Shown: piece after piece, positions 20,321 to 61,719 of the stretch | Position numbering within the stretch: the first letter of the stretch is position 1 | Layout of the letters: every line of letters begins with the position of its first letter | Assembly (NCBI GenBank): GCA_044892505.1 | Contig: CM097883.1 | Span: forward strand, 360,344,001 to 360,408,000 | Reading direction: 5' to 3' | Source: Schmidtea nova | Taxonomy: Eukaryota | Length of the DNA: 64,000 nucleotides | Translations under genes and position numbers: made by a program | The notes under the pieces: model-generated | Told to the model about the DNA's origin: nothing | The model's database searches: none | The model's input: the letters and a program-made list of their open reading frames with translations, nothing else

Positions 20321-22195
20321 CTAATGGGATACCTGTGCTTGTTTTAAGGAACATAATAGTTTTATATTGGGCTCAATATTTGAAAGAGCAACTCGAAGTT
20401 CTTGGTCAAGGCCCTTCAAGCACGACCGCTTATCATTTTTTATTAAAACTAGAGTTGAAAAACTTTCTTCACATATGTACGTGGTTGAAAATGGGAGCAG
20501 AACTTCAATAGCCTTTTCGGAAATTCGAGGATATTCTTCCTTAACCGCAATCCAAAACGTATCCAATGAAACGTCGGAAAATTTTATTCTTAGCGTCCCA
20601 TCGTTCCTCAAGTCGAAAAATTCGTCTCGAATTTCAAGGGAAAGAGCTACTGTAGAATTTTCGGCATTCGGTGAAAAAGGATTTCGAATCCAATCGTATT
20701 GGTCTGTATTAATTATGTGAAAGTATTGGTGAAATTTCTGTTGTAGCAATGTTAAATGTTGTTCGGCCAAACGCAATATGATCTGCTTGTTTTTTCCTGC
20801 TTGTGCAATCCTTCCAATCGTCTGGTTGGTTCTTTGGTACATTTCTAGTGATCCTTGTTGTAACTCCGATTGCCAAAGATCAAGTTTCTGTTTGAATCGG
20901 TTCAATTTGTCGGAGCATGTCAACAAATTTTCATTTCGCCCTTGCATTTTTTTATTAAGTTCATTCAGGTGTTCAAATATGTCAGCCATATAGGCAAGTT
21001 TGGTCATCCAGTGATTATCTTGTAGGAGATTGTGTAATTCGGGCACATTTTGATTCAATAGAAAATCACTAACCTCTTCGCGAAGCTCAAATAGTCGTGC
21101 TAGAACTTTACCTCGGGACAACCAGCGTACTTCTGTGTGAAGTAATAAGGATTGATATTCCGATCCCATTTCTGCGTAGAGTATCCCAAAAATTCGCGAA
21201 TTCAAGGCTTTTGATTTAATTAAATTTATAATGCTGATGCATTCATTCATTGTTGCCAATAGTTCCGAAGGTAAGTTTTTAACCATCAAAGCTTCTCGAT
21301 GTATGCAGCAATGTGTAATTTGTATTGCCGGATTTTGTCGCTTCACACATGAGACAAACCCCTTTTTATAACCCATCATTGCCGCAGCGCCATCCGTGCA
21401 AACACTCATGCAATTGCTCCATTGAATACCATAGGTTTTGAAGAACTCATCAGTTACTTGAAAAATTTCCTCACCGGTAGTCCGCTCTGGAAGTTCTTTG
21501 CAAAACAAATAATGATCTTTTATGGACTCCTCGTCAACGAAACGTACAATACATATTAGTTGTGCTCGGTTTTTGATATCGGTTGATTCGTCAATCTGAA
21601 GAGAAAAATTCTCCGTCATTTTCAATTTTGTAATTAATGTTTTTAAAATATCGCTTGACATATCATCAATACGTCTTTTAACAGTATCAGCTGATAACGA
21701 AACTTTACTGACTTCATTAATTTCATTAGGCCCAAACATTAATCGAGTGATTTCCATGCATGCTGGTTTAATAAGGGTTTCGCCAATTGTATGTGGTTTT
21801 TTCTGACGTGCAATTAATTTTGCAACGTGGTTACTAGTTTCTAACGCTTTGTCAGAAATTGTAACGGACGATCTCATAAATTTCCTCTGTTTTAAATTTT
21901 GATTTAAAAGCCGCTGAAAATATTGTTTGTCCTTGTTGGCGCAATTGGGATGTTTTGATTTTAGATGGCGAATCAGTTTACTTGGCACCATTGCCTCGTT
22001 GGAAAGCTGTTCTCTGCAAATTACGCATTCTGGTTTCGGAGCCGCTTCTTCACCACACCATGAAAATCCGTATTGAATATATTCTGCATTGTATTGCCTT
22101 TTCACTAGCTTCGGTCTTTTTACATCATTGCTCGTGCTGGGTTCATCATCATTTGTCGATAAAGTTGAACATTCTTTACGCAAAAACTTGTCCAT
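20321..22195 (-). CDS. Buster-type hAT transposase, 624 aa, apparently intact
   Basis: BED finger (CVIC...HLKSKH), catalytic D in SLQIDESTD, D in CTDGAAAM, CxxH in HCCIH, E in TYICEESFS, C-terminal dimerisation region. Confidence 0.95.
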   Translation of the reverse strand: MDKFLRKECSTLSTNDDEPSTSNDVKRPKLVKRQYNAEYIQYGFSWCGEEAAPKPECVICREQLSNEAMVPSKLIRHLKSKHPNCANKDKQYFQRLLNQNLKQRKFMRSSVTISDKALETSNHVAKLIARQKKPHTIGETLIKPACMEITRLMFGPNEINEVSKVSLSADTVKRRIDDMSSDILKTLITKLKMTENFSLQIDESTDIKNRAQLICIVRFVDEESIKDHYLFCKELPERTTGEEIFQVTDEFFKTYGIQWSNCMSVCTDGAAAMMGYKKGFVSCVKRQNPAIQITHCCIHREALMVKNLPSELLATMNECISIINLIKSKALNSRIFGILYAEMGSEYQSLLLHTEVRWLSRGKVLARLFELREEVSDFLLNQNVPELHNLLQDNHWMTKLAYMADIFEHLNELNKKMQGRNENLLTCSDKLNRFKQKLDLWQSELQQGSLEMYQRTNQTIGRIAQAGKNKQIILRLAEQHLTLLQQKFHQYFHIINTDQYDWIRNPFSPNAENSTVALSLEIRDEFFDLRNDGTLRIKFSDVSLDTFWIAVKEEYPRISEKAIEVLLPFSTTYICEESFSTLVLIKNDKRSCLKGLDQELRVALSNIEPNIKLLCSLKQAQVSH

Positions 22196-22577
22196 ATTTA
22201 AAATTATATAAAGTAAATATGAATAAAATAATTTTATTATTACACGCCCAGGTACAAATATTATTAGTAATCGTAAAATATTTTAAATGTTATTTTAATT
22301 GTAATATTTATATATTAAAAATTATTCAAATTCAATATTTAGAATTGAGCGCTAGTCAAGTTATTTACAAAAATAATTATTTGAATATTTAAAATTATAT
22401 AAAGTAAATATGAATAAAATAATTTTATTATTACACGCCCAGGTACAAATATTATTAGTAATCGTAAAATATTTTAAATGTTATTTTAATTGTAATATTT
22501 ATATATTAAAAATTATTCAAATTCAATATTTAGGATTGAGCGCTAGTCAAGTTATTTAGAAAAATAATTTTTTGAAT
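22194..22577. repeat. 191-bp tandem duplication immediately upstream of the transposase ATG
   Basis: 22194-22384 repeated at 22385-22575 with few substitutions. Confidence 0.9.
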
Positions 22578-23255: not shown

Positions 23256-24020
23256 GGTGCATGCTGAAATTAATGGATTTAAAATAAATTAATGGATTTA
23301 AAATATTTATTATTAAAAATAAAACACTAAGTTTATAAATAATACATGGCAATACAAAAAAATCTTTTTATCAGCAGAAAAGATTCATACACAAATTTTT
23401 AACATATTTATTCCACTTTTTACTAATACTGCAGTGATGAAAACATCAATACTATTTCGTTGAATCTTTTATACTTCTCAACGCCACGCTCCATTGTACC
23501 AGTAGCTAATCGAAAGCTGTGACGATGAGAAATTTGATAATGGAAAAGTAAATTGTGGTACACGCATAATCCCTGATGAATGGAGAGCTTACGGAGCTGC
23601 CATACGGAATTTGCAGTATTTTGAACATGAAACAATCAATCACAGCATCCATTTTGTTGATCCGGAAAATCCGGATATTAACACACAGTCGATTGAAATT
23701 TTGTGGTCACATGCAAAATATGCATTAACGAAAAACGGAATCAATAAGGAGAAAGAGTTTGATCACTTGATTAAATTCATGTGGGAGCGTGGCGTTGAGA
23801 AGTATAAAAAATTCAACGAAATAGTATTGATGTTTTCATCACTGCAGTATTAATAAAAAGTGGAATAACTATGTTAAAAATTTGTGTATGAATCTTTTCT
23901 GCTGATAAAAAGATTTTTTTGTATTGCCATGTATTATTTATAAACTTAGTGTTTTATTTTTAGTAATAAATATTTTAAATCCATTAATTTATTTTAAATC
24001 CATTAATTTCAGCATGCACC
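23256..24020 (+). mobile_element. Merlin (IS1016/ISXO2-like) derivative with ~235-bp inverted arms
   Basis: Termini GGTGCATG / CATGCACC; 8-bp TSD GGGTAAAT (23248-23255, 24021-24028); 23256-23491 is the reverse complement of about 23784-24020. Confidence 0.85.
23560..23853 (+). pseudogene. Merlin/ISXO2 transposase C-terminal fragment
   Basis: ...DEWRAY...HETINHSIHFVDPENPDINTQSIEILWSHAK, the typical ISXO2-like DDE motif. Confidence 0.85.
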
Positions 24021-45487: not shown

Positions 45488-46338
45488 TTTGGTGGGTGTG
45501 GCAACCCGTCCTGAGATGTGCAAGTGATAATGGATTTCATATTCTCGCTGAGCCCCCATTTATGACCATCGTTTGATCGAATAATCAATTGTAAAATCGG
45601 TGGCCGATAGAGATAAATTCTCTCCTGATAAATCCTCAGCATGTTTGGTGGTATTTGAATGTGCAAATTATCGGCGCCCGTTGTTGAATAATCAATTTTC
45701 CATAATGCATCGTTAGCTTCTCTATAGAACCTTACGATAATTTCTGTATTGAATTTAGACTCGTTAAAATTCATAATATGAAAAAAATTCTCTTTTAATC
45801 TTCGATCTAATTTCGGAAGAAAGCCTGGATAGATATAATGTGTTTGTATTTCATTGGTTAAACTATGATCCACTTTCAATACATAAACTGCAAAAATGTG
45901 ATGATAATCTAAATTTGGATGATAAATATTTATGGAAAAGTCTTGATCGATATGATGTGGAAATTTATCGCTTTTTGTTATTTTAAAATCATTTGTGGAC
46001 TTCGAATGGTGACCAAATAATATTTCGATAAACACAAATGCTAGAAGAAGAAAAAGATAACATTTCATATTTCAAAGAATTTTAATGAATTTTAATCAAC
46101 TCTCAAACTATATATTTTTAAATCAAAATATTTATACAATAATATTTAAACAAAATGTTTATGTAATTAATAACAGTTTTTAATCTAATAACAGTTTTAA
46201 AAATTTCAATAACAGTTTAAAATTTTATATTATTTTTTACTAAGATTGTTTTTGGAGTTAAATCGTCATTAAAATGACTTGTTGAAAATCTAATATCATT
46301 TGAGAGAATCTTCGATATCGGCTTTCTAGACCACTACA
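45488..46338 (-). repeat. 3' LTR (contains 194-aa ORF 45484-46068)
   Basis: Direct repeat of 52256-53106; I saw only three substitutions. Confidence 0.95.
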
Positions 46339-46555: not shown

Positions 46556-48174
46556 TTAATTTGAATAGATTCTTATTAGTCTGGTTGGTGAATCCGGTTT
46601 TTGATTAATAGAACGGACACGAACCCATTTGTTGTAAGTGACGGACTTTGGTTTATTTTGTGTTTGATTTGCTTTCCTCAAAATGGGTGGTAAACGAAGT
46701 ACGTCATTTGGTTCTGGGATAAACGGTATGTATTCAGATTTTTCCGTAATTTTGTTTTCTGCGTATGATATTTGAACAATCGGGTATGAAGGTGAGTTGT
46801 TGGAAAGATCGTCCTCAGTGGAATTGATAGGGTCATTATCGTTTATGTCGGAGTTCGGGATTATATCGGTTTGGGTCGAGAAATTATCAGGTGGAGGTTC
46901 ATCATCGAGCAAAACTAAAGCTGGTTTAAGACGGCAGAGGTTAAATGTTTGTGTAGAGTCGTTAACAATCACTTTCGCGTTGTTTTCTTTAATCTCGACG
47001 AGCTTGTAAGGTCCGGAATATCTTGGCTTTAAACTTGCATCGGTTATATTTCTAATATAGACGTGTGATGCATTTCGAATGTTTTTGGAATGTAAGGCTT
47101 ATAGGTGGTGGCGGAAGAGAATTCAGGATTAGTGTCGATTGATAAAAAATGGTCTCTAGCAATCGCGAGATCTTCCAAAGTAGGAGAGTTATCAAAGTCG
47201 ACAAGTTGACCGGGTAACGATGTATTTGTACCGAAAAGTAATTGAGCAGGTGATGATCCTGTAGTCCTAGAAGGTGTATTTCGCCAACCTAATAATACGA
47301 AAGGTAAAACCTTTGTCCAACCTTGTTGTTCAGAAAGAATGCCAAGAGAAGCTTTTAAAGTACGATGGAAACGTTCGACTAAACCGTTTGTTTGTGGATG
47401 ATATGCGGTAGTACGAAGATGTTGTATCCCAAGTTTAGCGGTCAAAGCTTGAAATAAGTTAGATTCAAACTGTGTTCCGCGATCACTGATGATCGACTTG
47501 GGAACTCCATATCGTGAAATCCAATTTTGAATTAGCGAAGTTGCGATAGTGTTAGAAGAAATGGTGCGTAAAGGAATGACTTCGAACCAACGAGTCTTGC
47601 GGTCGATCATGGTTAATAAGTAAGAAAAACCGCAGTCACTTGGGACTGGGCCGACGATGTCAATGTGTAAGTTTTCGAAACGGTTGCCAGTGGGATAATG
47701 AATTATTGGAGGTTTAGTGTGCTTAGTTATTTTAAAACGTTGGCATCCTATGCATTGTGCAACCCAGAGTTTAACATCATGTCTCATGTTTGGCCAAACT
47801 ACACACGTGTGTAATAGATTAAAAGTGGCTGAGGAACCTGGGTGGTGCGTGTTGTGGATAGACAGAAAAGCCGGTTTTCTCATGGAGTCATTCAAGATTG
47901 GGCGAAGAGTGCCAGGAAGAGATGAGTCGTAGTGAATTTTGTCTTTGATTATATGTTTGTCGCCAAATTTCGAAATATCAATGGCATCTGGAGGATTATT
48001 TTGGAGTTCGTCGATAGAAAATAAAGGACAGTGGATAATTGCGTTTACATTTCGTGAAAGGCAATCAGCTATAATGTTATCACTGCCGGCGATGTGGTAT
48101 ATTTGGCAAGAAAATTCGCTAATATAGCTAATCTGGCGTTGTTGTCTCGGAGAAGGGTCTTTCATTGAGAACAA
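46556..48174 (-). CDS. Integrase (frameshifted near 47044)
   Basis: HHCC zinc motif (HNTHHPG...CIGC), HIDIVGP, ISDRGTQFES, NGLVERFH; C-terminal GPY-type segment in the next frame. Confidence 0.95.
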
Positions 48175-48482
48175 GTAAACAAGTGGCTTATGGTCTGTAT
48201 GGATGCTAAAAAGACGGCCCTCGAGTAAATGCTTAAAATGTTTAAACGACTGGTAAATAGCGAGAAGTTCGCGGTCGAAGCTGAATATTTTTGATGTGGT
48301 GAGGTAAGTTTCTTTGAGTAAAATTCTAGTTGCTCTGGGATGTAACCGTTTATCTGGTGCAAAACGGCACCGATTGCTATGTTTGACGCGTCTGTGGTTA
48401 AACGTAATGGCAAATCTCCTCGTGGATAATGCAAAGTCTGGATGTTTGAAAGGGCTGTTTTAGCATGCTCAAAAGCGAGCAA
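48162..48482 (-). CDS. RT connection/RNase H fragment
   Basis: LRLTTDASNIAIGAVL...EFYSKKL; frameshifted from both neighbours. Confidence 0.9.
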   Translation of the reverse strand: MLAFEHAKTALSNIQTLHYPRGDLPLRLTTDASNIAIGAVLHQINGYIPEQLEFYSKKLTSPHQKYSASTANFSLFTSRLNILSIYSRAVFLASIQTISHLFTCSQ

Positions 48483-48502
48483 CGAAGTATCGTTCCAAGG
48501 AA

Positions 48503-49963
48503 TTATAGATTTCTTTGGTCTAGAACAGTAACCAGAAAGAGGTGAAAGAATTTCTGAAATTTAGGAATAAAACGGTGGCAATTGTTTACTGTTCCCAGAA
48601 AACTCTGAAGTTGAGTAACAGTTTGTGGAAGAGGAAACTTAGATATAGTATCTAGTCTGTCGGATGGTGGACTGACGCCTTGACCCGAGATAATGTGACC
48701 TAAAAAACGGACTTCTTCTTTAAAAAATAAACACTTATCTAAATTAATTTGTAGGTTATTGGAAGAAAGTGCGCAAAGAACTGCATCTAAATGTTTTTTG
48801 TGTGTTTCCGCATCCTTAGAACCAATGAGGATATCGTCAATATAAGGAATTGCGAATGGTAAATCCATTAAAATATGGTCGATGTGTCTTTGAAAGGTTT
48901 GAGCGGAATTTCTAAGACCAAACGGCATGAAAACGTACTCAAAAAGTCCGATAGGTGTTAAAACTGCGGTTTTTTCCACGTCAGATTCTTTAACTGGGAT
49001 TTGGTGATAGGCCTTAACTAAGTCGATAGTTGAAAATATTTTGGCCTCGGTAAGTCTGTACAAAATGTCGTTTACTAAAGGCATAGAATATGAGTCGTGA
49101 ACCGTAATCATATTTAAACGACGATAATCTCCACAAGGTCTGAAAGTTCCGTCTTTCTTTGGTACGAGATGAAGTGGTGAAGACCATGGAGATTTAGATC
49201 TTTTTATAATGCCTTCGTTCAACAAAGTAGCGAATTCGGAGCGAACAAAATCTAGTTTTTCGTTCGAAAGAGGGCGTACTTTACAACGTACCGGAAGAGA
49301 GTTTGTGGTGTTGATGGTATGGCAGTAAGATGCTACAGAGACTTGCTTTCGTAAAGGCATTGTCTGTGAAAATGTGTATTTATTTAAAATGTCTGTAGCA
49401 ATCTTTGGATGATTGGGTTTAATGGCAGTAGATACAGAAAAGTCAGATGAGTCGGAAATGTTGAGTTTTTTTGTGTCAATGACTAAAGACGAATTTGTGT
49501 GCGAATGTGTTCTCAAAAGGCGTGAACGACAATCGACCAACAAATTGTGTGAACTCAAAAAGTCTGAGCCAAGAATGGGATGGATAACGTCAGCGACACA
49601 GAACTTCCATATAAAAGATTGATTCAAAGAAGGAAGAACGAAATTTGCTGAAAAAGAACAGTGTGTATTCACCATGGTTCCGTTGGCGGCTTTCAATGTA
49701 TAAACGGAATCATCGCAAAGAGATTCATATTGTAAAGGAAGAATGGAGAGACTGGATCCTGTGTCAACAAGAAAATCGAGAGTACTGCAAAAGTTCGGAG
49801 CAACGCTGAAAGAAGGGGATTCAGCTCTCACTAGAAATAAATCGAGTGCAGGAGGTAATTTGCCATCAACTTCAGCCGCAACGAGTGATGGCATTACAAG
49901 TTTTTTTGAATGTTGTTTGGAGAAGATGGTGGGGAATTGTAGGATTTGCAACCTACAATGCAT
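48503..49963 (-). CDS. Pol: aspartic protease and reverse transcriptase
   Basis: FLVDTGSS; SPWSSPLHLVPKKDG.FRPCGDYRRLN; FSTIDLVKAYHQI; MPFGLRNSAQTFQR; YIDD. Confidence 0.97.
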   Translation of the reverse strand: MHCRLQILQFPTIFSKQHSKKLVMPSLVAAEVDGKLPPALDLFLVRAESPSFSVAPNFCSTLDFLVDTGSSLSILPLQYESLCDDSVYTLKAANGTMVNTHCSFSANFVLPSLNQSFIWKFCVADVIHPILGSDFLSSHNLLVDCRSRLLRTHSHTNSSLVIDTKKLNISDSSDFSVSTAIKPNHPKIATDILNKYTFSQTMPLRKQVSVASYCHTINTTNSLPVRCKVRPLSNEKLDFVRSEFATLLNEGIIKRSKSPWSSPLHLVPKKDGTFRPCGDYRRLNMITVHDSYSMPLVNDILYRLTEAKIFSTIDLVKAYHQIPVKESDVEKTAVLTPIGLFEYVFMPFGLRNSAQTFQRHIDHILMDLPFAIPYIDDILIGSKDAETHKKHLDAVLCALSSNNLQINLDKCLFFKEEVRFLGHIISGQGVSPPSDRLDTISKFPLPQTVTQLQSFLGTVNNCHRFIPKFQKFFHLFLVTVLDQRNL

Positions 49964-50835
49964 TTGTTTGCTTTATCCCCAAATCGTGCGTGATAAATGC
50001 ACTTATCAATGATTTTGAGGGTAGCTGCTTTGTTTCGCCAGCCACATCCTATGTTGCAACAATTTGCTTTCGTTCCATATTTAGTATGATAAAAGCAAAT
50101 GTTTGAATAAGCCGGGGATTTGGAACGTCGTCGGTCAAACGCATTGGAAAGTGATGAATTTCGAGACGGAGATTTATGACGTTCCAAAAGCAAAATACGA
50201 TCGGTAAGGTCGCGAATGGCGCAAAGAAGAGCATTCTCTGTTGTTGATGGGATCGGCGGGCTTGCGATAAGAAGGCTGTTGACAGAAGAGCCTGGTGTAC
50301 GACCTAACGGAACAATTTCATGAATTTTGTCCGCCATTTTTGCTAATTCGTGTATATCTACGGGAGACGTTAAAGCAAGTATCTGTTGTGTGTGTGTCGG
50401 AAGTACACTTAAAAAGAACTGGCGTAGCATGTTTTGGTCGGGTGCTGTCCCATTTTGCATTTGTTCGAGGTCTGTAAAAGCCTTCTGCAAAAGTTCTGTC
50501 GGCTTACAACTTCCTAAAGATTGGGCTTTGAAATATTTTGAGAATATTTCATGTTTGGGAACTTTAAATAAATCCAACAGTCCTGTGCTGAGTTCCTCAA
50601 AAGGAGTTAAAAAGGTTTTTTGCGTTGTGCGGCGAATAACGGCAGAAAGGCGGCCTAAATGATCCTGTGGGATGAGAGATAATATTCTATAGAATTTATC
50701 TCTTGAAGAAGTAACGCCGCAACTTTCTAACAGGGCTTCGAGTGTGAGCAACCAAGTTGATGGGGATTGGTTCTCATCTAAAAAGAACGGACAATTAATA
50801 TTTTGTCTAGAGTTACTGTCGGAAGAAGCAGCGCC
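49894..50835 (-). CDS. Gag, lacking its own ATG upstream of the conserved core
   Basis: CPFFLDENQSPSTWLLTLEALLESCGVTSSRDKFY is the typical N-terminal core of this Gypsy clade; two C-terminal CxYHxx(Y/F)GxKAxxC motifs; frame open back to the TGA at 50836-50838. Confidence 0.9.
   Translation of the reverse strand, partial: GAASSDSNSRQNINCPFFLDENQSPSTWLLTLEALLESCGVTSSRDKFYRILSLIPQDHLGRLSAVIRRTTQKTFLTPFEELSTGLLDLFKVPKHEIFSKYFKAQSLGSCKPTELLQKAFTDLEQMQNGTAPDQNMLRQFFLSVLPTHTQQILALTSPVDIHELAKMADKIHEIVPLGRTPGSSVNSLLIASPPIPSTTENALLCAIRDLTDRILLLERHKSPSRNSSLSNAFDRRRSKSPAYSNICFYHTKYGTKANCCNIGCGWRNKAATLKIIDKCIYHARFGDKANKCIVGCKSYNSPPSSPNNIQKNL
49900..49906 (-). promoter_or_regulatory. -1 ribosomal frameshift slippery site A AAA AAC (gag-pol)
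   Basis: Canonical X XXY YYZ heptamer two codons before the gag stop; pol is in the -1 frame. Confidence 0.75.
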
Positions 50836-52836
50836 TCAAACATTTCTTTGCTTTTTAGGCAAAGGTTTGGGCTTTTTATCATCGTATTCGTTGTCATCAT
50901 CGATACTTGATGGTGCGCCGCCATACAATGGTACATGACAGAATAGCAAGGAATCCGAACATATGTTAGAACTTAAAAGTGAGTCCTGATTCCTTAATAT
51001 TGCGCCATTATAAGATATGTATGTCGGTCCCTCGTACGACAAGCGCTTGCAAATTAATGTAGATAGTTTTGATATAGTCGTGTCCTGGGCTAGTTTAAAG
51101 TGGAATGTGAAGGAGGAAACCCTTACGAATATTGACAAAAACCTATAGGATATGCGACGTAGACTAAAATTCGGAAGATTGGGCGGTCCCGTTAATTTTA
51201 ATAATAATGATATAAATAATAATAATATATAATAATAGAAATTTAATATAACAATAAAATATTCTAACATTGTAACTCCGCAGCGATAATGGGGGCTGAT
51301 CTTCTGTTCCGAAAAGAGAAAAAAATTTGTTAATATTGGAGTTCCTGTGACTTTTGAATTTAATGGAGCTTCTAATAGGTAATTATCGTTGTTGGTGTTA
51401 AAGTTCATTTTCGAGGGAGCTGGTGAAAAAATTACGATAGATTTGATGTTATTGCAATTTTTCGTGTTGATTTGTGTTGCTTTCGATGTTTGACCAATTG
51501 AAATGTATCCCTGTGACTTAACACCTGACGGTGTGCAAGGAAACTGCTTTTGAAAGCCATTAATCAACTGTTGAGCGACTTTGGAATCCGTTTGAATGAG
51601 AGAAAAATTTGGATTTACTGGCATTGAATTTACAGGTTTTGGATTCTGCTGAGAAATCGATCGATTTATCGCTTCTAATATTCGAAAGTCGACGTTAATC
51701 ATTGAAAGAACTGTAGAATTTTGATTCTGTGGAGCGACTGGAGATGAACTTATTGTTATTGCTGACAGACTACTATTCGTTGAATTGTTAACGATTAAAG
51801 ACTGATTTGAAACTGTAGACTTGCTAGCATCTGATATATGATTGTTAGCTTGCTTGGATTTATCACTTTGTAAGATTAAATTCTGTTGTATTAAATGTAA
51901 AGCCTGTCGAATGTTAGTGGCTGAGTCTTGTGAACTGGTTGGAATTCTTGTCATTTGCGCACAGTCTAATGGAATTTGAGAGTTTTGATTTACTTGCAAT
52001 GGGGTTGGAATTATAGGAATTGACGGTTGATTTTGTCGATTAATTAAATGCATCGGAGGAGGTGGTGGTTGCATTGCAGCTGCAATTCGCTTAACGACTT
52101 CAATTTGACTAAGCGTACTTGCATTATTAGAATTAGATGAGTTTGATTGAAATGAATTATTCATTCTTGCTGGATGGTGTGAGACTTGGGGACGAAATGT
52201 TTGATTTCCGTCTTGAATTGAAGATTGACCATTGATGTTTTCTTCTGACACCATTTTTGATGGGTGTGGCAACCCGTCCTGAGATGTGCAAGTGATAATG
52301 GATTTCATATTCTCGCTGAGCCCCCATTTATGACCATCGTTTGATCGAATAATCAATTGTAAAATCGGTGGCCGATAGAGATAAATTCTCTCCTGATAAA
52401 TCCTCAGCATGTTTGGTGGTATTTGAATGTGCAAATTATCGGCGCCCGTTGTTGAATAATCAATTTTCCACAATGCATTGTTAGCTTCTCTATAGAACCT
52501 TACGATAATTTCTGTATTGAATTTAGACTCGTTAAAATTCATAATATGAAAAAAATTCTCTTTTAATCTTCGATCTAATTTCGGAAGAAAGCCTGGATAG
52601 ATATAATGTGTTTGTATTTCATTGGTTAAACTATGATCCACTTTCAATACATAAACTGCAAAAATGTGATGATAATCTAAATTTGGATGATAAATATTTA
52701 TGGAAAAGTCTTGATCGATATGATGTGGAAATTTATCGCTTTTTGTTATTTTAAAATCATTTGTGGACTTCGAATGGTGACCAAATAATATTTCGATAAA
52801 CACAAATGCTAGAAGAAGAAAAAGATAACATTTCAT
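50836..52836 (-). CDS. ORF0, 666 aa: signal peptide, LTR-encoded domain, low-complexity stalk, hydrophobic segment, ubiquitin-like domain (LYGG), acidic/basic tail
   Basis: Uninterrupted 2-kb frame in AT-rich DNA; MKCYLFLLLAFVFIEILFG; hydrophobic run from aa 523; aa 567-640 align with ubiquitin. Confidence 0.75.
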   Translation of the reverse strand: MKCYLFLLLAFVFIEILFGHHSKSTNDFKITKSDKFPHHIDQDFSINIYHPNLDYHHIFAVYVLKVDHSLTNEIQTHYIYPGFLPKLDRRLKENFFHIMNFNESKFNTEIIVRFYREANNALWKIDYSTTGADNLHIQIPPNMLRIYQERIYLYRPPILQLIIRSNDGHKWGLSENMKSIITCTSQDGLPHPSKMVSEENINGQSSIQDGNQTFRPQVSHHPARMNNSFQSNSSNSNNASTLSQIEVVKRIAAAMQPPPPPMHLINRQNQPSIPIIPTPLQVNQNSQIPLDCAQMTRIPTSSQDSATNIRQALHLIQQNLILQSDKSKQANNHISDASKSTVSNQSLIVNNSTNSSLSAITISSSPVAPQNQNSTVLSMINVDFRILEAINRSISQQNPKPVNSMPVNPNFSLIQTDSKVAQQLINGFQKQFPCTPSGVKSQGYISIGQTSKATQINTKNCNNIKSIVIFSPAPSKMNFNTNNDNYLLEAPLNSKVTGTPILTNFFLFSEQKISPHYRCGVTMLEYFIVILNFYYYILLLFISLLLKLTGPPNLPNFSLRRISYRFLSIFVRVSSFTFHFKLAQDTTISKLSTLICKRLSYEGPTYISYNGAILRNQDSLLSSNICSDSLLFCHVPLYGGAPSSIDDDNEYDDKKPKPLPKKQRNV
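52242..52253 (-). promoter_or_regulatory. Primer-binding site, tRNA-Leu type
   Basis: TGGTGTCAGAAG starting 2 nt after the 5' LTR end. Confidence 0.85.
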
Positions 52837-53106
52837 ATTTCAAAGAATTTTAATGAATTTTAATCAACTCTCAAACTATATATTTTTAAATCAAAATATT
52901 TATACAATAATATTTAAACAAAATGTTTATGTAATTAATAACAGTTTTTAATCTAATAACAGTTTTAAAAATTTCAATAACAGTTTAAAATTTTATATTA
53001 TTTTTTACTAAGATTGTTTTTGGAGTTAAATCGTCATTAAAATGACTTGTTGAAAATCTAATATCATTTGAGAGAATCTTCGATATCGGCTTTCTAGACC
53101 ACTACA
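52256..53106 (-). repeat. 5' LTR
   Basis: Starts TGTAGTGG on minus; TATA-like AAATATATAG about 45 nt upstream of the ORF0 ATG. Confidence 0.95.
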
Positions 53107-53694: not shown

Positions 53695-54159
53695 TCACAA
53701 CCGGAGATCTTGATCAATGATATCAAGAGTTGAAATGAGAAGGCTCCATGACAGTCCGTATTGATTGATTTCCGGTGCTGACAAATAATCCATTAATCGA
53801 GATTGATTGTGATCCAATGTATTGATTTGTAGATTTTTAGAGTTAGTCATTTCCGATTTGTCTGGATTGTATATTAATATTGATCCAGTTGTTGACAAGC
53901 ATCTTCCAGTTTGTACAGCTTCTTTTCGCATTCCAGCAGCGAGACATTTCTGCAATCTACAGAACTGGCAATTGTTTCTTCTTTGAATATCGACTTCATA
54001 ATCTCCACTAGAGTGGCACTGATAATTGTTGTCATTTGATGAAAACGAGTCACTGTGAATGTCTTGGGTGAACTGTGGTGAATTATCAATCATTAAACAC
54101 TGGCCGAATGTCGTTGAGTTGTTAATGGGGTATATCGAATCATTGTTAGCTGTTTGCAT
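53695..54159 (-). CDS. Nuclear hormone receptor exon, NR2F/COUP-TF-like, with degenerate DNA-binding domain
   Basis: [41 protein letters not shown] (COUP-TF: CQYCRLKKC..VGMRREAVQRGR); finger 1 cysteines absent; no LBD seen. Confidence 0.7.
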
Positions 54160-54899
54160 TTTTTGTTTGTGATCAGCGTGAATATGAAAAAAAATGTAAA
54201 TATTAAAACAAGTCTATTAATTTTTACTCCATTTAATAATTACTTAAATTAAATTAATTAATTTAAAAAATAAAAGAAATTGATAAAATTGAATAATTAA
54301 TCTAAGGCACTACAAGCTATACAATTATTGAAAATAATATCCAACAATTGCAAAAAAACTTGAAATATACAGTGTCAAAATTGAAATCAATAATGTAACT
54401 CAAATTAAGATATCGTATTATAGAGAATAAGTTTTCAAGGATATTGATGTAATTAAATGTTAAAACAATACTTGAACACTTATGAAAAAGTTGAAGTGCA
54501 CAGTGTGCAAAAACTTAAAATCAATAATAAAAGAAACTTTTATATAGAAACTTGTAGAGGATAATTTTTCAAATAAAATGAGCTATAAATTTCTTGAAAA
54601 TAATTTCAAATATGTATGATAAACTTGTAGTTCACAGTATAACAAAAATGAAAAATCGATATTATTACAAAAGTTTTAAATCATTTTGTAAAGAATAGTT
54701 TTTCTGATAGACTGAGATATAAATCTCATGAAAATAATTTCAAGCACTTGTGAAAGGTTGATGTGCAATTGTTGGGGTTGTTATAATCACAGAAAATAAA
54801 TTTAAAATTGCACAAATCAATAAAAAATATAAAAATTGGAAAAATAATAATTAATGTTCAAACATTAATTAAAAATTTACAAAAAATTAAAATAAAGTT

Positions 54900-58959: not shown

Positions 58960-61471
58960 TCGCCCCTTCAATATTTAAGGAATCAGCAATTTCACTTTCA
59001 ATTGCAATAATTGATATTACTGAGACGTTCTTGAGTCATTGAAGTTCTCAGGTGGTTTTTGATTATTTTTAATTTTGAAAAACTTCGCTCTTCAGATGCA
59101 ACAGATACTGGAACTGTCAGTAAAAGTTTTAAACTTGTGGCGACATTTGGAAAAGAAGTCTCCAAGTTGTATTTGCATAAATATTTATGAGTTCTTCGGG
59201 CTGCTTTCTGTCTTTTATGATAATTTTTAGAGAAATTAACTCTTGATATAATTCTACGCCACTGATATCACAAGATTCACCATCTTTAAATTTATTATGG
59301 AGATCGAAACAACTTTTTTTATTTCCTCATGTTCCATATCAATAAATTTGTATAGAAATCCAAAACATTGTTCGAAATTCGACAAAGTTTCAAAACGGGT
59401 GGTAAGAGATGAAATAGCTGTATATAGTATTACACAGAAAAAATTAATTTGAAAATGTTCTTTTGGAGTAAATTGAATATCTTCATCTCCTTCATAGCTA
59501 AATTGTTTTTGGTGATGTTGGCGACGTACACTAATTTCAGCAGGAAAATCCGGTTCTGTTTCAAGTGCTTTACAAAGTTCATTAGAAATCTGCAAATAAT
59601 TTTCGAAACTTTCGTCATTTCTAATGCTTTTGAAAAATTTCAAAACTTCCTTAATTGATTCAGCACACGAACTGATATTCCAAGAAACTTTCTGCATCAT
59701 TTTGCTAATAAAATCTAACTTTTCCAAGATTTCGTACCATATTATTATTGAAGAAATAAATTTATAAGATTTAAGTTTCATTGCCAAACATTCAGCTTCA
59801 TGTCGAACTGTTGGCATTGAAGATTCCTCAGCTATTTCTATAAGGCTGTCATAAATTTCACCTAATTCATTTCGCAGTGGTCTAATCGCTTTAATTCTTG
59901 CTTCCCATCGAGTTTCACTAACTTGTTTCAATGTTAAAGATTTTACATTTTTCTTTAAAACTTGCCATCTAAATGGGGATCCACTGAAAAAGTTGTATAT
60001 TACAGATACATTACTGAAAAAATCCACCGTTGAAAACGAAACATTAGCTGCATCATTAATGGCCAAATTTAATGTATGCGCGTTGCATGGCATAAACAGA
60101 GCTCGTGGATAATTGTCCAAAATTCGTTTTTGCAATCCTTTATGTTTTCCGGACATATTAGACCCATTATCGTATCACTGGCCCCTCATATCGTTAATAT
60201 TTAATTCAAGATAGTTTAACTTTTGAATTAAGAAGTCGTAAAAAGATTCCAGTACATTTTTCAGCTTGATAAAAGCCAATGGAATTTTCTCTTACTTCAA
60301 CTTCATAATTTTTAATATGTACATACCTAATAATCATTGTAATTTGCTCGACATGTCCAGTGTCCGGCGTACAGTCCAAAATGACTGAAAAATATTTTGC
60401 CTCTTTTATTGATGTTAATATATATTTTTGAATTTGGGTTGCAAGGATAGTGATTATTTCATTTTGAAAGCGATTTCCCAGGTAATGTGGCATGTGGTTC
60501 TTTAAAGCGATTGGTTCTTGTTCGCGTTTTATGTGGTCTGCCATTATATCATCAAATTTTCCTATCATTTCAATTGCTTTCAGAAAATTTCCATTAATTT
60601 TTTCGTACAATTTGCTGGAAGAACCTCTAAAAGCTAAACACTGTCCTGCTAGAAATTGTACGACAGATATCATGCGCCTGACAATTTGACACCATCGTTT
60701 TTTCTCGGCGTCATAATACCGTTGCATATTCTTATCAATTGTAGTTTTTCTTTTTAAATTTAATTCCAATTTTTTCAAACAGGTGCAATTTTCGATGTGC
60801 AGCGATGTTTTTTCGTGACGAGATAAGTTGTCAGATATGTGTTGCCAATCGTTGAAGCCTTCATTAACTAATTTTATTTCTTGTTTGCCAAATAATTTAC
60901 AACAGAAGCAAAATGTGGCATCATTTTTTGGAGAATAGATTAACCACTCACGATTAAATTTTTCACCATTTGGCAGTTTTCTATAGAAATAAACCTTTGA
61001 AAATAATCTTCCAAATTCATTTAGTGGATATGTAGATGGTATATTTTGAATAGGGCCTTTTTCAATTAAAATATCCAGCATTTTATTGGTAAGTGTTAAA
61101 GGCCAGCAAGCTGAATCATTTAGTTCTATACACATAGCAAAATATTCTTCATCAATTTCAGTGATATCGTCGATATTTGTAACTGCAATATCTCCTATTT
61201 CATCATTACTACTAATATTGTCATTATCATTTGTATTTTCGGCAGATAATTCATTTTCATTGGAAAAAAATTCACTGCTTGGATTTGCTTGGCTACTGCA
61301 AGCATTTTGCATTTCTGGAGGTTTTTCCAAATATTTGGTTAGTGAACCAAAGATTTTTTTAGCAACATGTTGTTTTTCTTCTCGCTTTCTTTTATACTGT
61401 GCTCCAGACAATCTTTTCGTTTTTCTTCCAGTCATTCTTAAGCCTTTTACTAAAATGTTTAAAAATATCAA
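58960..61471 (-). pseudogene. Frameshifted hAT transposase
   Basis: WLIYS...FCFCCKLF (TTF zinc finger), FSVILDCTPD, PCNAHTLNL, TRWEAR, VASEERSFSKLKIIKNHLRTSM; split across at least three frames. Confidence 0.92.
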
Positions 61472-61719
61472 TAACGATTTATATTGAAATTAATTTATAA
61501 AATTAAATTCATTACCTTTTTCAACCTTTTGTAACAAAGCGTTGGGTGAGGCGGTGAGGGAATCTGCCCAAGCGCTTTCCGAGTTCGAATAGGGTTTTAT
61601 TGCCACGCAGCTGAGACGCTTGCCGTGCTATAGACAGACAGGTAAATCACATATTATAACACACACACATACACACGCTCCCAAATTACCTACAGCCAGG
61701 TAGAGGCTCTACCGTAGAG

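Follow-up and report, generated by a model that had tools for sequence, protein, structure and literature searches.

The window analysed here is a 64,000 nt stretch of the Schmidtea nova genome (assembly GCA_044892505.1, contig CM097883.1, positions 360,344,001 to 360,408,000), and carries on its minus strand a young Ty3/Gypsy long terminal repeat (LTR) retrotransposon of ~7.6 kb. In this element, a host-derived leader that starts inside the LTR and a ubiquitin-like (UBL) domain ending in diglycine (GG) lie in frame ahead of Gag, an arrangement in which the UBL is likely to act as a tag from which Gag is cut free by the host. The two LTRs (53106–52256 and 46338–45488) are 851 bp each and have the same base at 849 of 852 aligned positions, with 3 aligned differences. 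The insertion is flanked by a 5 bp target duplication (ATAAC), and duplications of this length also flank six other paired elements. The empty site is present in public DNA contigs, consistent with a young insertion. The pol region (46559–49972), in a frame that overlaps the end of gag, is in pieces in the window copy; a protease motif recognized in the sequence is followed by the Pfam domains RVT_1, RT_RNaseH, Integrase_H2C2 and rve. This Gypsy order of protease, reverse transcriptase, RNase H and integrase, together with the paired LTRs, primer site, purine tract and target duplication, places the element in Ty3/Gypsy, although its LTR termini are TG...AA and not TG...CA.

All features of the element lie on the minus strand. 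The 5′ LTR (52256–53106) reads TGTAG...AAA; its first ~230 bp are related among the LTR types described below, and the remainder is a captured host cassette. This cassette is the 5′ end of a spliced host mRNA (52266–52871), comprising 35 nt of 5′ untranslated region, an ATG at 52836, a signal-peptide-like start and ~190 codons. The open frame continues across the end of the LTR and the primer-binding site (52242–52254), where an in-frame ATG (MVSEE) occurs, into an S/N/Q-rich spacer (residues 195–526, 51259–52254) that is open, weakly conserved and predicted to be luminal. A predicted stop-transfer transmembrane helix follows (residues ~527–549, 51190–51258, from hydropathy), then the UBL domain (residues 567–640, 50917–51138), which ends in VPLYGG. 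The linker behind it (50800–50916) is acidic then basic, is predicted to be disordered (predicted local distance difference test score, pLDDT, <50), would form the start of mature Gag and contains a copy-specific TGA at 50836–50838. Gag (49894–50835) consists of a helical DUF7041-like capsid region, a coiled coil and two CX2HX9CX3C motifs (50097–50044 and 50001–49948). The 3′ LTR (45488–46338) carries the same host cassette, with 195 open codons and no Gag behind them, and is preceded by a purine-rich tract.

The sequence-only reading had joined ORF0 (52836–50836) and gag (50835–49894) in one minus-strand frame of 667 + 313 = 980 residues split by a single TGA. It had found no Gag ATG ahead of the conserved core, and had cautioned that the TGA could be a lesion of this copy. 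Each of these statements was borne out. The start of ORF0 inside the LTR in a captured leader, the differing leaders among copies, the helix ahead of the UBL and the clade-wide spread of the module, all described below, go beyond that reading. The first methionine of the gag frame is residue 126, the conserved core tryptophan is residue 28, and the first methionine past the TGA lies ~100 residues beyond the start of the conserved Gag core; a separate Gag start was rejected on this ground. From 185 candidate copies, 40 were scored and 30 fetched, including the window copy, and variants were analysed in 38 copies (again including the window) mapped on a 39th. The stop occurs in 1 of the 38 copies, and all 29 other fetched copies are open across codon 50836–50838 and the ORF0–gag junction, none having the separate Gag frame that had been named as a refuting result. 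Since the TGA is private to the window copy, no readthrough is needed and this explanation was rejected; since the other copies are open, the normal product is one protein. The GG, whose loss elsewhere had also been named as refuting, is kept in 34/38 copies, with four exceptions that are each a different single-copy change, and in 28 of the 29 other fetched copies. Stop-free frames of at least 900 amino acids were present in ~40 of the 150 listed matches (855 candidates).

The pattern of variation shows that copies normally carry the fused frame and that selection acts on it. For variants common to at least three copies, the ratio of replacement to silent change (dN/dS) was lowest in the linker (0.07), followed by the capsid (0.16) and the UBL (0.24), and highest in the spacer (0.67); private variants gave 0.5–0.8. 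The UBL and linker together held five replacement and nine silent shared variants, a departure from neutrality with p=0.001. All 15 stops seen in the spacer were private, and indels were multiples of three in 7/7 cases when shared by at least three copies, against 8/33 when private.

Residues 567–640 form a ubiquitin-like fold, as judged from structure models and profile comparison. The stretch containing them matched the Pfam ubiquitin family (PF00240) with E=1.9e-4 and 21.6 bits, below the cut-off of 25.4; a copy of a second family, L168, scored 25.6 bits against the same cut-off, and an outside relative, P0018, scored 81.5. An AlphaFold model from the single sequence gave the order beta-beta-alpha-beta-beta with a mean pLDDT of 56. 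Almost all of the 50 best Foldseek matches to this model were ubiquitin, SUMO, ISG15 and other UBL entries (probability ~1.0, target TM-score ~0.6–0.7, none at E<=0.001). When an open sister copy was modelled with a 35-row alignment, its UBL reached a pLDDT of 91–97; behind it, the model showed disorder in the linker, then helices in the capsid region, a coiled coil and finally a zinc-finger region. The beta-grasp fold on which the original proposal depended was thus predicted in both models, and the diglycine closes the last strand of the domain. The claimed alignment of these residues to ubiquitin, with two single-residue gaps and GG at the end, was recovered by a clade profile compared with host ubiquitin, in which 74 columns aligned with two single gaps, GG fell on GG and the probability was 97.9. 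An origin from the host eS30-fused UBL is disfavoured by the same profile, which includes two near-ubiquitin rows and gave 64.1 for that protein; pairwise scores (3.6 against 1.6 bits) were uninformative. The host eS30-fused UBL (L248, G000 C2:116152909) ends in VPLKGG, near the VPLYGG of the window and the FPLLGG of the second family.

The UBL-GG-Gag arrangement was present in four families of this AT-rich 1.25 Gb genome: the window family and three more. Family 2 has ~44% identity to the window family in UBL and Gag, ends in FPLLGG and carries O-GlcNAc transferase pieces upstream; family 3 ends in YLLKGG, with filamin and other cargo upstream; family 4 ends in PRLRGG and has short LTRs. We also inspected 20 other DUF7041 loci, picked because their frames were long or varied; families 3 and 4 accounted for 13 of them, and the remaining seven were short Gags without UBL-GG. 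In family 2 (L158–L168), the O-GlcNAc transferase fragments fused ahead of the UBL vary in length, and the LTR has extra open frames near its 5′ end as well as two in-frame leaders, one of which resembles a TFIIS-N/PNUTS domain (no Pfam hit).

When the internal ORF was used as query, a word-indexed protein search returned no match at E<=0.001; relatives outside this genome were found by HMMER. Among the best 150 of 2313 HMMER matches, 135 span the core start. The search of related Gags for an upstream UBL-GG, which the sequence-only reading had proposed, found a GG shortly before the core in all 30 proteins that have the clade core motif and at least 80 upstream residues; among the matches listed, 5 of 10 clade-motif proteins with fewer than 80 upstream residues also had it. 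Of the remaining 95 listed proteins, only five were flagged by a loose rule. One of these, P0081, is a conventional DUF7041 Gag outside the clade core motif with a clear ubiquitin domain ending in ALPGG, possibly a further independent capture. A quick tree, built from the Gag cores of 72 unnamed proteins, placed all 37 GG-labelled rows in one 43-row branch (SH-aLRT 99). An alignment of 35 rows selected for having an N-terminal extension (23–44% identity) left only G, G, W and F invariant. These results indicate that UBL-GG-Gag defines the whole clade, with the UBL widely diverged and the GG kept. P0018 has a near-true ubiquitin ending in LRLRGG in the UBL slot and is nested among relatives with diverged UBLs, which suggests re-capture; P0102 likewise has a near-true ubiquitin in this slot. 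Upstream cargo in the outside relatives included histone H2A, 5′-nucleotidase, cohesin and CNOT1 pieces.

BEL/Pao elements of this genome share the layout of LTR-started frame, host cargo, near-true ubiquitin and Gag. We searched the genome with the ubiquitin family and considered the best 150 of 2605 candidates, most of which lay in long frames. Sixteen non-host loci were inspected, and in at least 11 of them a near-true ubiquitin was followed by one common sequence, which in L271 is a DUF1759 (BEL/Pao-type) Gag. The cargo ahead of this ubiquitin included Hsp70, an RNA polymerase subunit and Hsp90, and in one BEL/Pao-type element with 1206 bp LTRs of 99.6% identity the frame begins in the LTR. 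High-copy BEL/Pao-type ubiquitin-Gag elements were seen at G000 C1:391868001-391888000 (L271, L287 and L288) and also at L263–L278.

In the window family, the LTR interior is a swappable slot for host mRNA 5′ ends placed in frame with Gag. The ORF0 ATG lies 270 bp inside the 5′ LTR. Among copies, near-identical internal regions are coupled to differing LTR interiors, the interior is usually the same at both ends, the cassette lies in both LTRs, and the internal region is complete in most copies. The leader sources are eight membrane or secreted host genes. Type A, found in the window copy, derives from host gene L144; type B is anchor-like and unnamed; type C is a histidine acid phosphatase (PF00328); type D is NOMO1 (PF22898); type E, in a short and a long form, is PCMT (PF01135); type F is claudin-like, with a weak GSG-1 match; type G is, on a weak match, tetraspanin-like; and type H, represented by one decayed copy, is epoxide-hydrolase-like, resembling the microsomal enzyme. 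PCMT-type methyltransferase is a cytosolic enzyme, and the hydrophobic N-terminal extension with which the PCMT-type leader opens (L042, L044, L079 and L113–L123; host L145) is therefore unusual.

Source genes were found for three leaders. The type A leader has 98% identity to L144, lacks its first intron (~108 nt) and ends at a junction past which the host frame runs on; the NOMO leader has 96% identity to a host gene that continues beyond the junction; and the long PCMT leader lacks a 44 nt host intron. Host introns are therefore missing in both informative cases, the NOMO piece lying within one exon and being uninformative. No source gene was located for types B, C, F, G or H; the tetraspanin candidates checked resembled LTR copies, and no search was aimed at the other four types. 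All identified captures are sense-oriented, and seven of the eight sources clearly contribute the host start codon.

Most joins keep the Gag frame. The 66 distinct LTR/primer-site junctions comprise 59 in frame, four shifted copies of in-frame types and three without a recognizable leader. Leader-bearing junctions thus keep the frame in 59 of 63 cases, and in 43 the frame stays open from the host ATG. Counted by type, 9/9 junctions are in frame, against 38–54% of simulated microhomology joins (p<=0.004). Three elements (L041, L047 and L056) pair a type C 5′ LTR with a type A 3′ LTR inside an intact target duplication, as expected if types recombined in one particle or were converted later. A leaderless lineage was considered for L238, in which the 5′ LTR has no cassette, yet the 3′ LTR is of type A, and deletion is more likely. 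Solo LTRs have spread these host 5′ ends with their signal peptides, with at least 40 matches for each of two leader types and 38 for a third.

Hydropathy, on which signal peptides were judged throughout, points to entry into the endoplasmic reticulum (ER). Leader types A–F have an N-terminal hydrophobic stretch (13-mer means 1.8–3.4), and the hydrophobic starts of types G and H were judged by eye. In copy L060, 15 N-glycosylation sequons lie before the helix and one after it, and the helix itself has a Kyte–Doolittle 19-mer mean of 2.39, against best values of 1.1–1.5 in families 2–4. The two in-frame leaders of family 2 have no N-terminal hydrophobic stretch (0.37), and that family has no strong helix. 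The pattern in the window family fits a predicted topology of luminal spacer, stop-transfer helix and cytosolic UBL-Gag.

In line with the cleavage inferred in the sequence-only reading, we propose that a host deubiquitinase probably cuts after the GG, freeing Gag with a fixed N-terminus whatever lies upstream; such a cut would make Gag independent of the upstream sequence. Two published precedents support this. Cellular hydrolases cut after the ubiquitin inserted in pestivirus polyproteins, giving an exact N-terminus and tolerating other upstream host sequence (PMC8310069), and the diverged UBL of FUBI-eS30 is cut by the deubiquitinase USP36 with release of its partner (PMC8354635). Transcription would begin in the LTR ahead of the cassette, and ribosomes would initiate at the host AUG of a single precursor made up of host-derived leader, spacer, hydrophobic helix, UBL, GG and Gag. 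The leader would direct the growing chain, and the RNA with it, to the ER. There the spacer would pass into the lumen, the helix would halt transfer and leave UBL-Gag in the cytosol, and the cut after GG would free Gag close to the membrane. In particles containing host mRNA, template switching would swap leaders; Gag would stay cytosolic only behind leaders that are in frame and target the membrane, and these would therefore be the ones to spread.

A further-reaching reading holds that two unrelated groups, a Gypsy clade with CHCC Gag and the BEL/Pao elements, independently made ubiquitin a self-removing Gag tag. The 5′ end of the element would thereby be free to evolve without limit and the LTR would become a plug-in leader slot. 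In the window family this slot would be selected for ER signals: translation of the genome RNA would take place on the ER, Gag would be released at that site, and mRNAs bound to the ER nearby would be packaged and provide the next leader. On this reading, the part upstream of the cut would be a membrane glycoprotein whose free C-terminal GG might allow it to be conjugated or to serve as a decoy. To this further-reaching reading we assign a probability of about 45%.

Several observations weigh against the proposed cut and leader model. The shared variants of the helix region are eight replacement and one silent, giving no sign of purifying selection there, and the counts throughout are small and come from copies that are related and not independent. 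The window UBL has only ~22% identity to ubiquitin, and VPLYGG lacks the two arginines of LRLRGG. The in-frame primer-site ATG could bypass the leader; P0026 starts there, without a UBL. The dN/dS of 0.87 in the NOMO leader indicates that leaders are not kept as working proteins, although they share no stops; what counts seems to be an open frame with a signal, and not the captured protein itself. Finally, the anchor of microsomal epoxide hydrolase, comparable to the type H leader, normally leaves the C-terminus in the cytosol, opposite to the topology proposed.

The likeliest of the alternatives, although we consider it improbable, is that the cut after UBL-GG is real and the leaders are passengers, with translation starting from the primer-site ATG and secretory mRNAs being captured only because particles form near the ER. 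The good context of that ATG in families 1–3, the near-neutral drift of leader sequence and the tendency of microhomology by itself to favour in-frame joins (0.38–0.54) would all suit such a scenario. It sits poorly with the in-frame joins of all nine junction types (p<=0.004) and of 59/63 leader-bearing junctions, 43 of them open from the host ATG, with the lack of any stop shared by leader copies, and with captures that are all sense-oriented and, in 7/8 sources, clearly include the host start codon.

Slightly less likely again is that the UBL is never cut and serves as a binding or spacer domain, with Gag tethered to the ER membrane by the helix, much as mouse IAP Gag stays tethered to the ER membrane. 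The great divergence of the domain, its missing ubiquitin arginines and the membrane anchor predicted in the window family are compatible with such a role. However, the surface of the domain varies and the GG does not, families 2–4 have UBL-GG with no strong helix, and near-true ubiquitin occupies the same slot in P0018, P0102 and the BEL/Pao elements. Linear ubiquitin fusions are, moreover, cut by cellular hydrolases (PMC8310069). Release of Gag near the linker by the element's own aspartic protease, with the UBL setting precursor level or lifetime, for example via the proteasome, is improbable: a retropepsin motif at the start of pol and the predicted disorder of the linker would allow it, but strict GG conservation and ubiquitin captures ending exactly at GG would be left unexplained, and the large, varied N-terminal cargo would hinder a retropepsin, an enzyme that normally acts after assembly.

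If release of Gag by host deubiquitinases is correct, Gag maturation would depend on these enzymes in two superfamilies, and their specificity would be predicted to control transposition. It would also explain how an autonomous element keeps capturing host coding sequence, even in its LTRs, without losing Gag. The leaders scattered in solo LTRs offer material from which gene fusions could arise, and they can mislead gene annotation.

Several known systems are comparable in part. Cytopathic pestiviruses (BVDV Osloss, CP1 and CP Rit; PMC8310069) likewise carry host-derived ubiquitin in frame in a polyprotein, but there the event is recent, confined to single RNA-virus strains and releases NS3, whereas here the domain is old, diverged and clade-wide, and stands ahead of Gag in an LTR retrotransposon. 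FUBI-eS30 and the ubiquitin–ribosomal protein fusions (PMC8354635) resemble the element in placing a UBL ahead of a partner, with VPLKGG in the host and VPLYGG in the window; unlike the window element, they are cellular genes. LTR-mediated retroposition by template switching (PMC5131818) likewise involves pieces of spliced host mRNA, joins at which a short sequence is common to both partners, and multi-gene mosaics. The captures described there replace part of the internal ORFs and leave non-autonomous copies; here they lie in both LTRs, in frame, with a full internal region.

For the Gypsy elements Burro/GYPSM1 (PMC6431247), a ubiquitin/SUMO-like motif and captured host domains are described, but these elements are ~30 kb long with an N-terminal Gag and the motif inside the polyprotein after Gag, and the relevant section proposes no cleavage role. 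Their giant size, N-terminal Gag with CCHC knuckles and env-like region are not features of the window element, which is 7.6 kb and has CHCC motifs in a Gag at the C-terminus of ORF1. No paper describing UBL-GG before the Gag of an LTR retrotransposon was found in the literature searched; subscription journals, Repbase entries and supplements lay outside its scope and may describe such elements.

Delivery of Gag or its RNA to the ER is itself known from other elements. Mouse IAP Gag is brought to the ER through the signal recognition particle (SRP), comparable to the targeting predicted for the leaders. Yeast Ty1 RNA is translated with SRP at the ER, so that RNA or Gag is likewise brought there (PMC3945221). 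Ty1 Gag has no recognizable signal, whereas the signal predicted here would be borrowed, interchangeable, LTR-encoded and parted from Gag by helix and UBL.

By its Gag motif, the element appears to lie near the CsRn1 clade (CsRn1, PwRn1 and AgCR), which shares the CX2HX9CX3C Gag motif, the DUF7041-like capsid and the overlapping pol frame (PMC2582038). It differs in having two copies of the motif and a long UBL-bearing N-terminal extension, and it departs from two stated clade features: its target duplication is 5 bp and not 4 bp, and its primer site resembles tRNA-Leu(CAA), over 12 nt, and not tRNA-Trp. The 12 nt are complementary to the 3′ end plus CCA of a tRNA-Leu(CAA)-like gene whose anticodon was read by eye, ARAGORN having assigned none; ARAGORN also found no tRNA in any of the first six pattern loci tested for the primer tRNA (6/6). 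A long tandem array at L285 (G000 C2:300.51-300.59 Mb) has a ~900 bp unit containing tRNA-Gly, tRNA-Gln and an intron-containing tRNA-Leu-like gene. At the primer site (52254–52252 in the window, and in families 1–3), the LTR closes with AA and not CA, and an ATG in the Gag frame arises where the primer site begins.

Elsewhere in the window, the strand that carries the element also has a zf-C4 (nuclear-receptor zinc-finger) exon (53695–54213, minus), ~600 bp upstream of it. Frames resembling hAT transposases, with BED finger, DUF4371 and dimerization domain, occur at 20321–22282 and 59254–61489 (both minus). A pair of 237 bp inverted repeats at 23256–24020, with 98% complementarity, resembles a miniature inverted-repeat transposable element.

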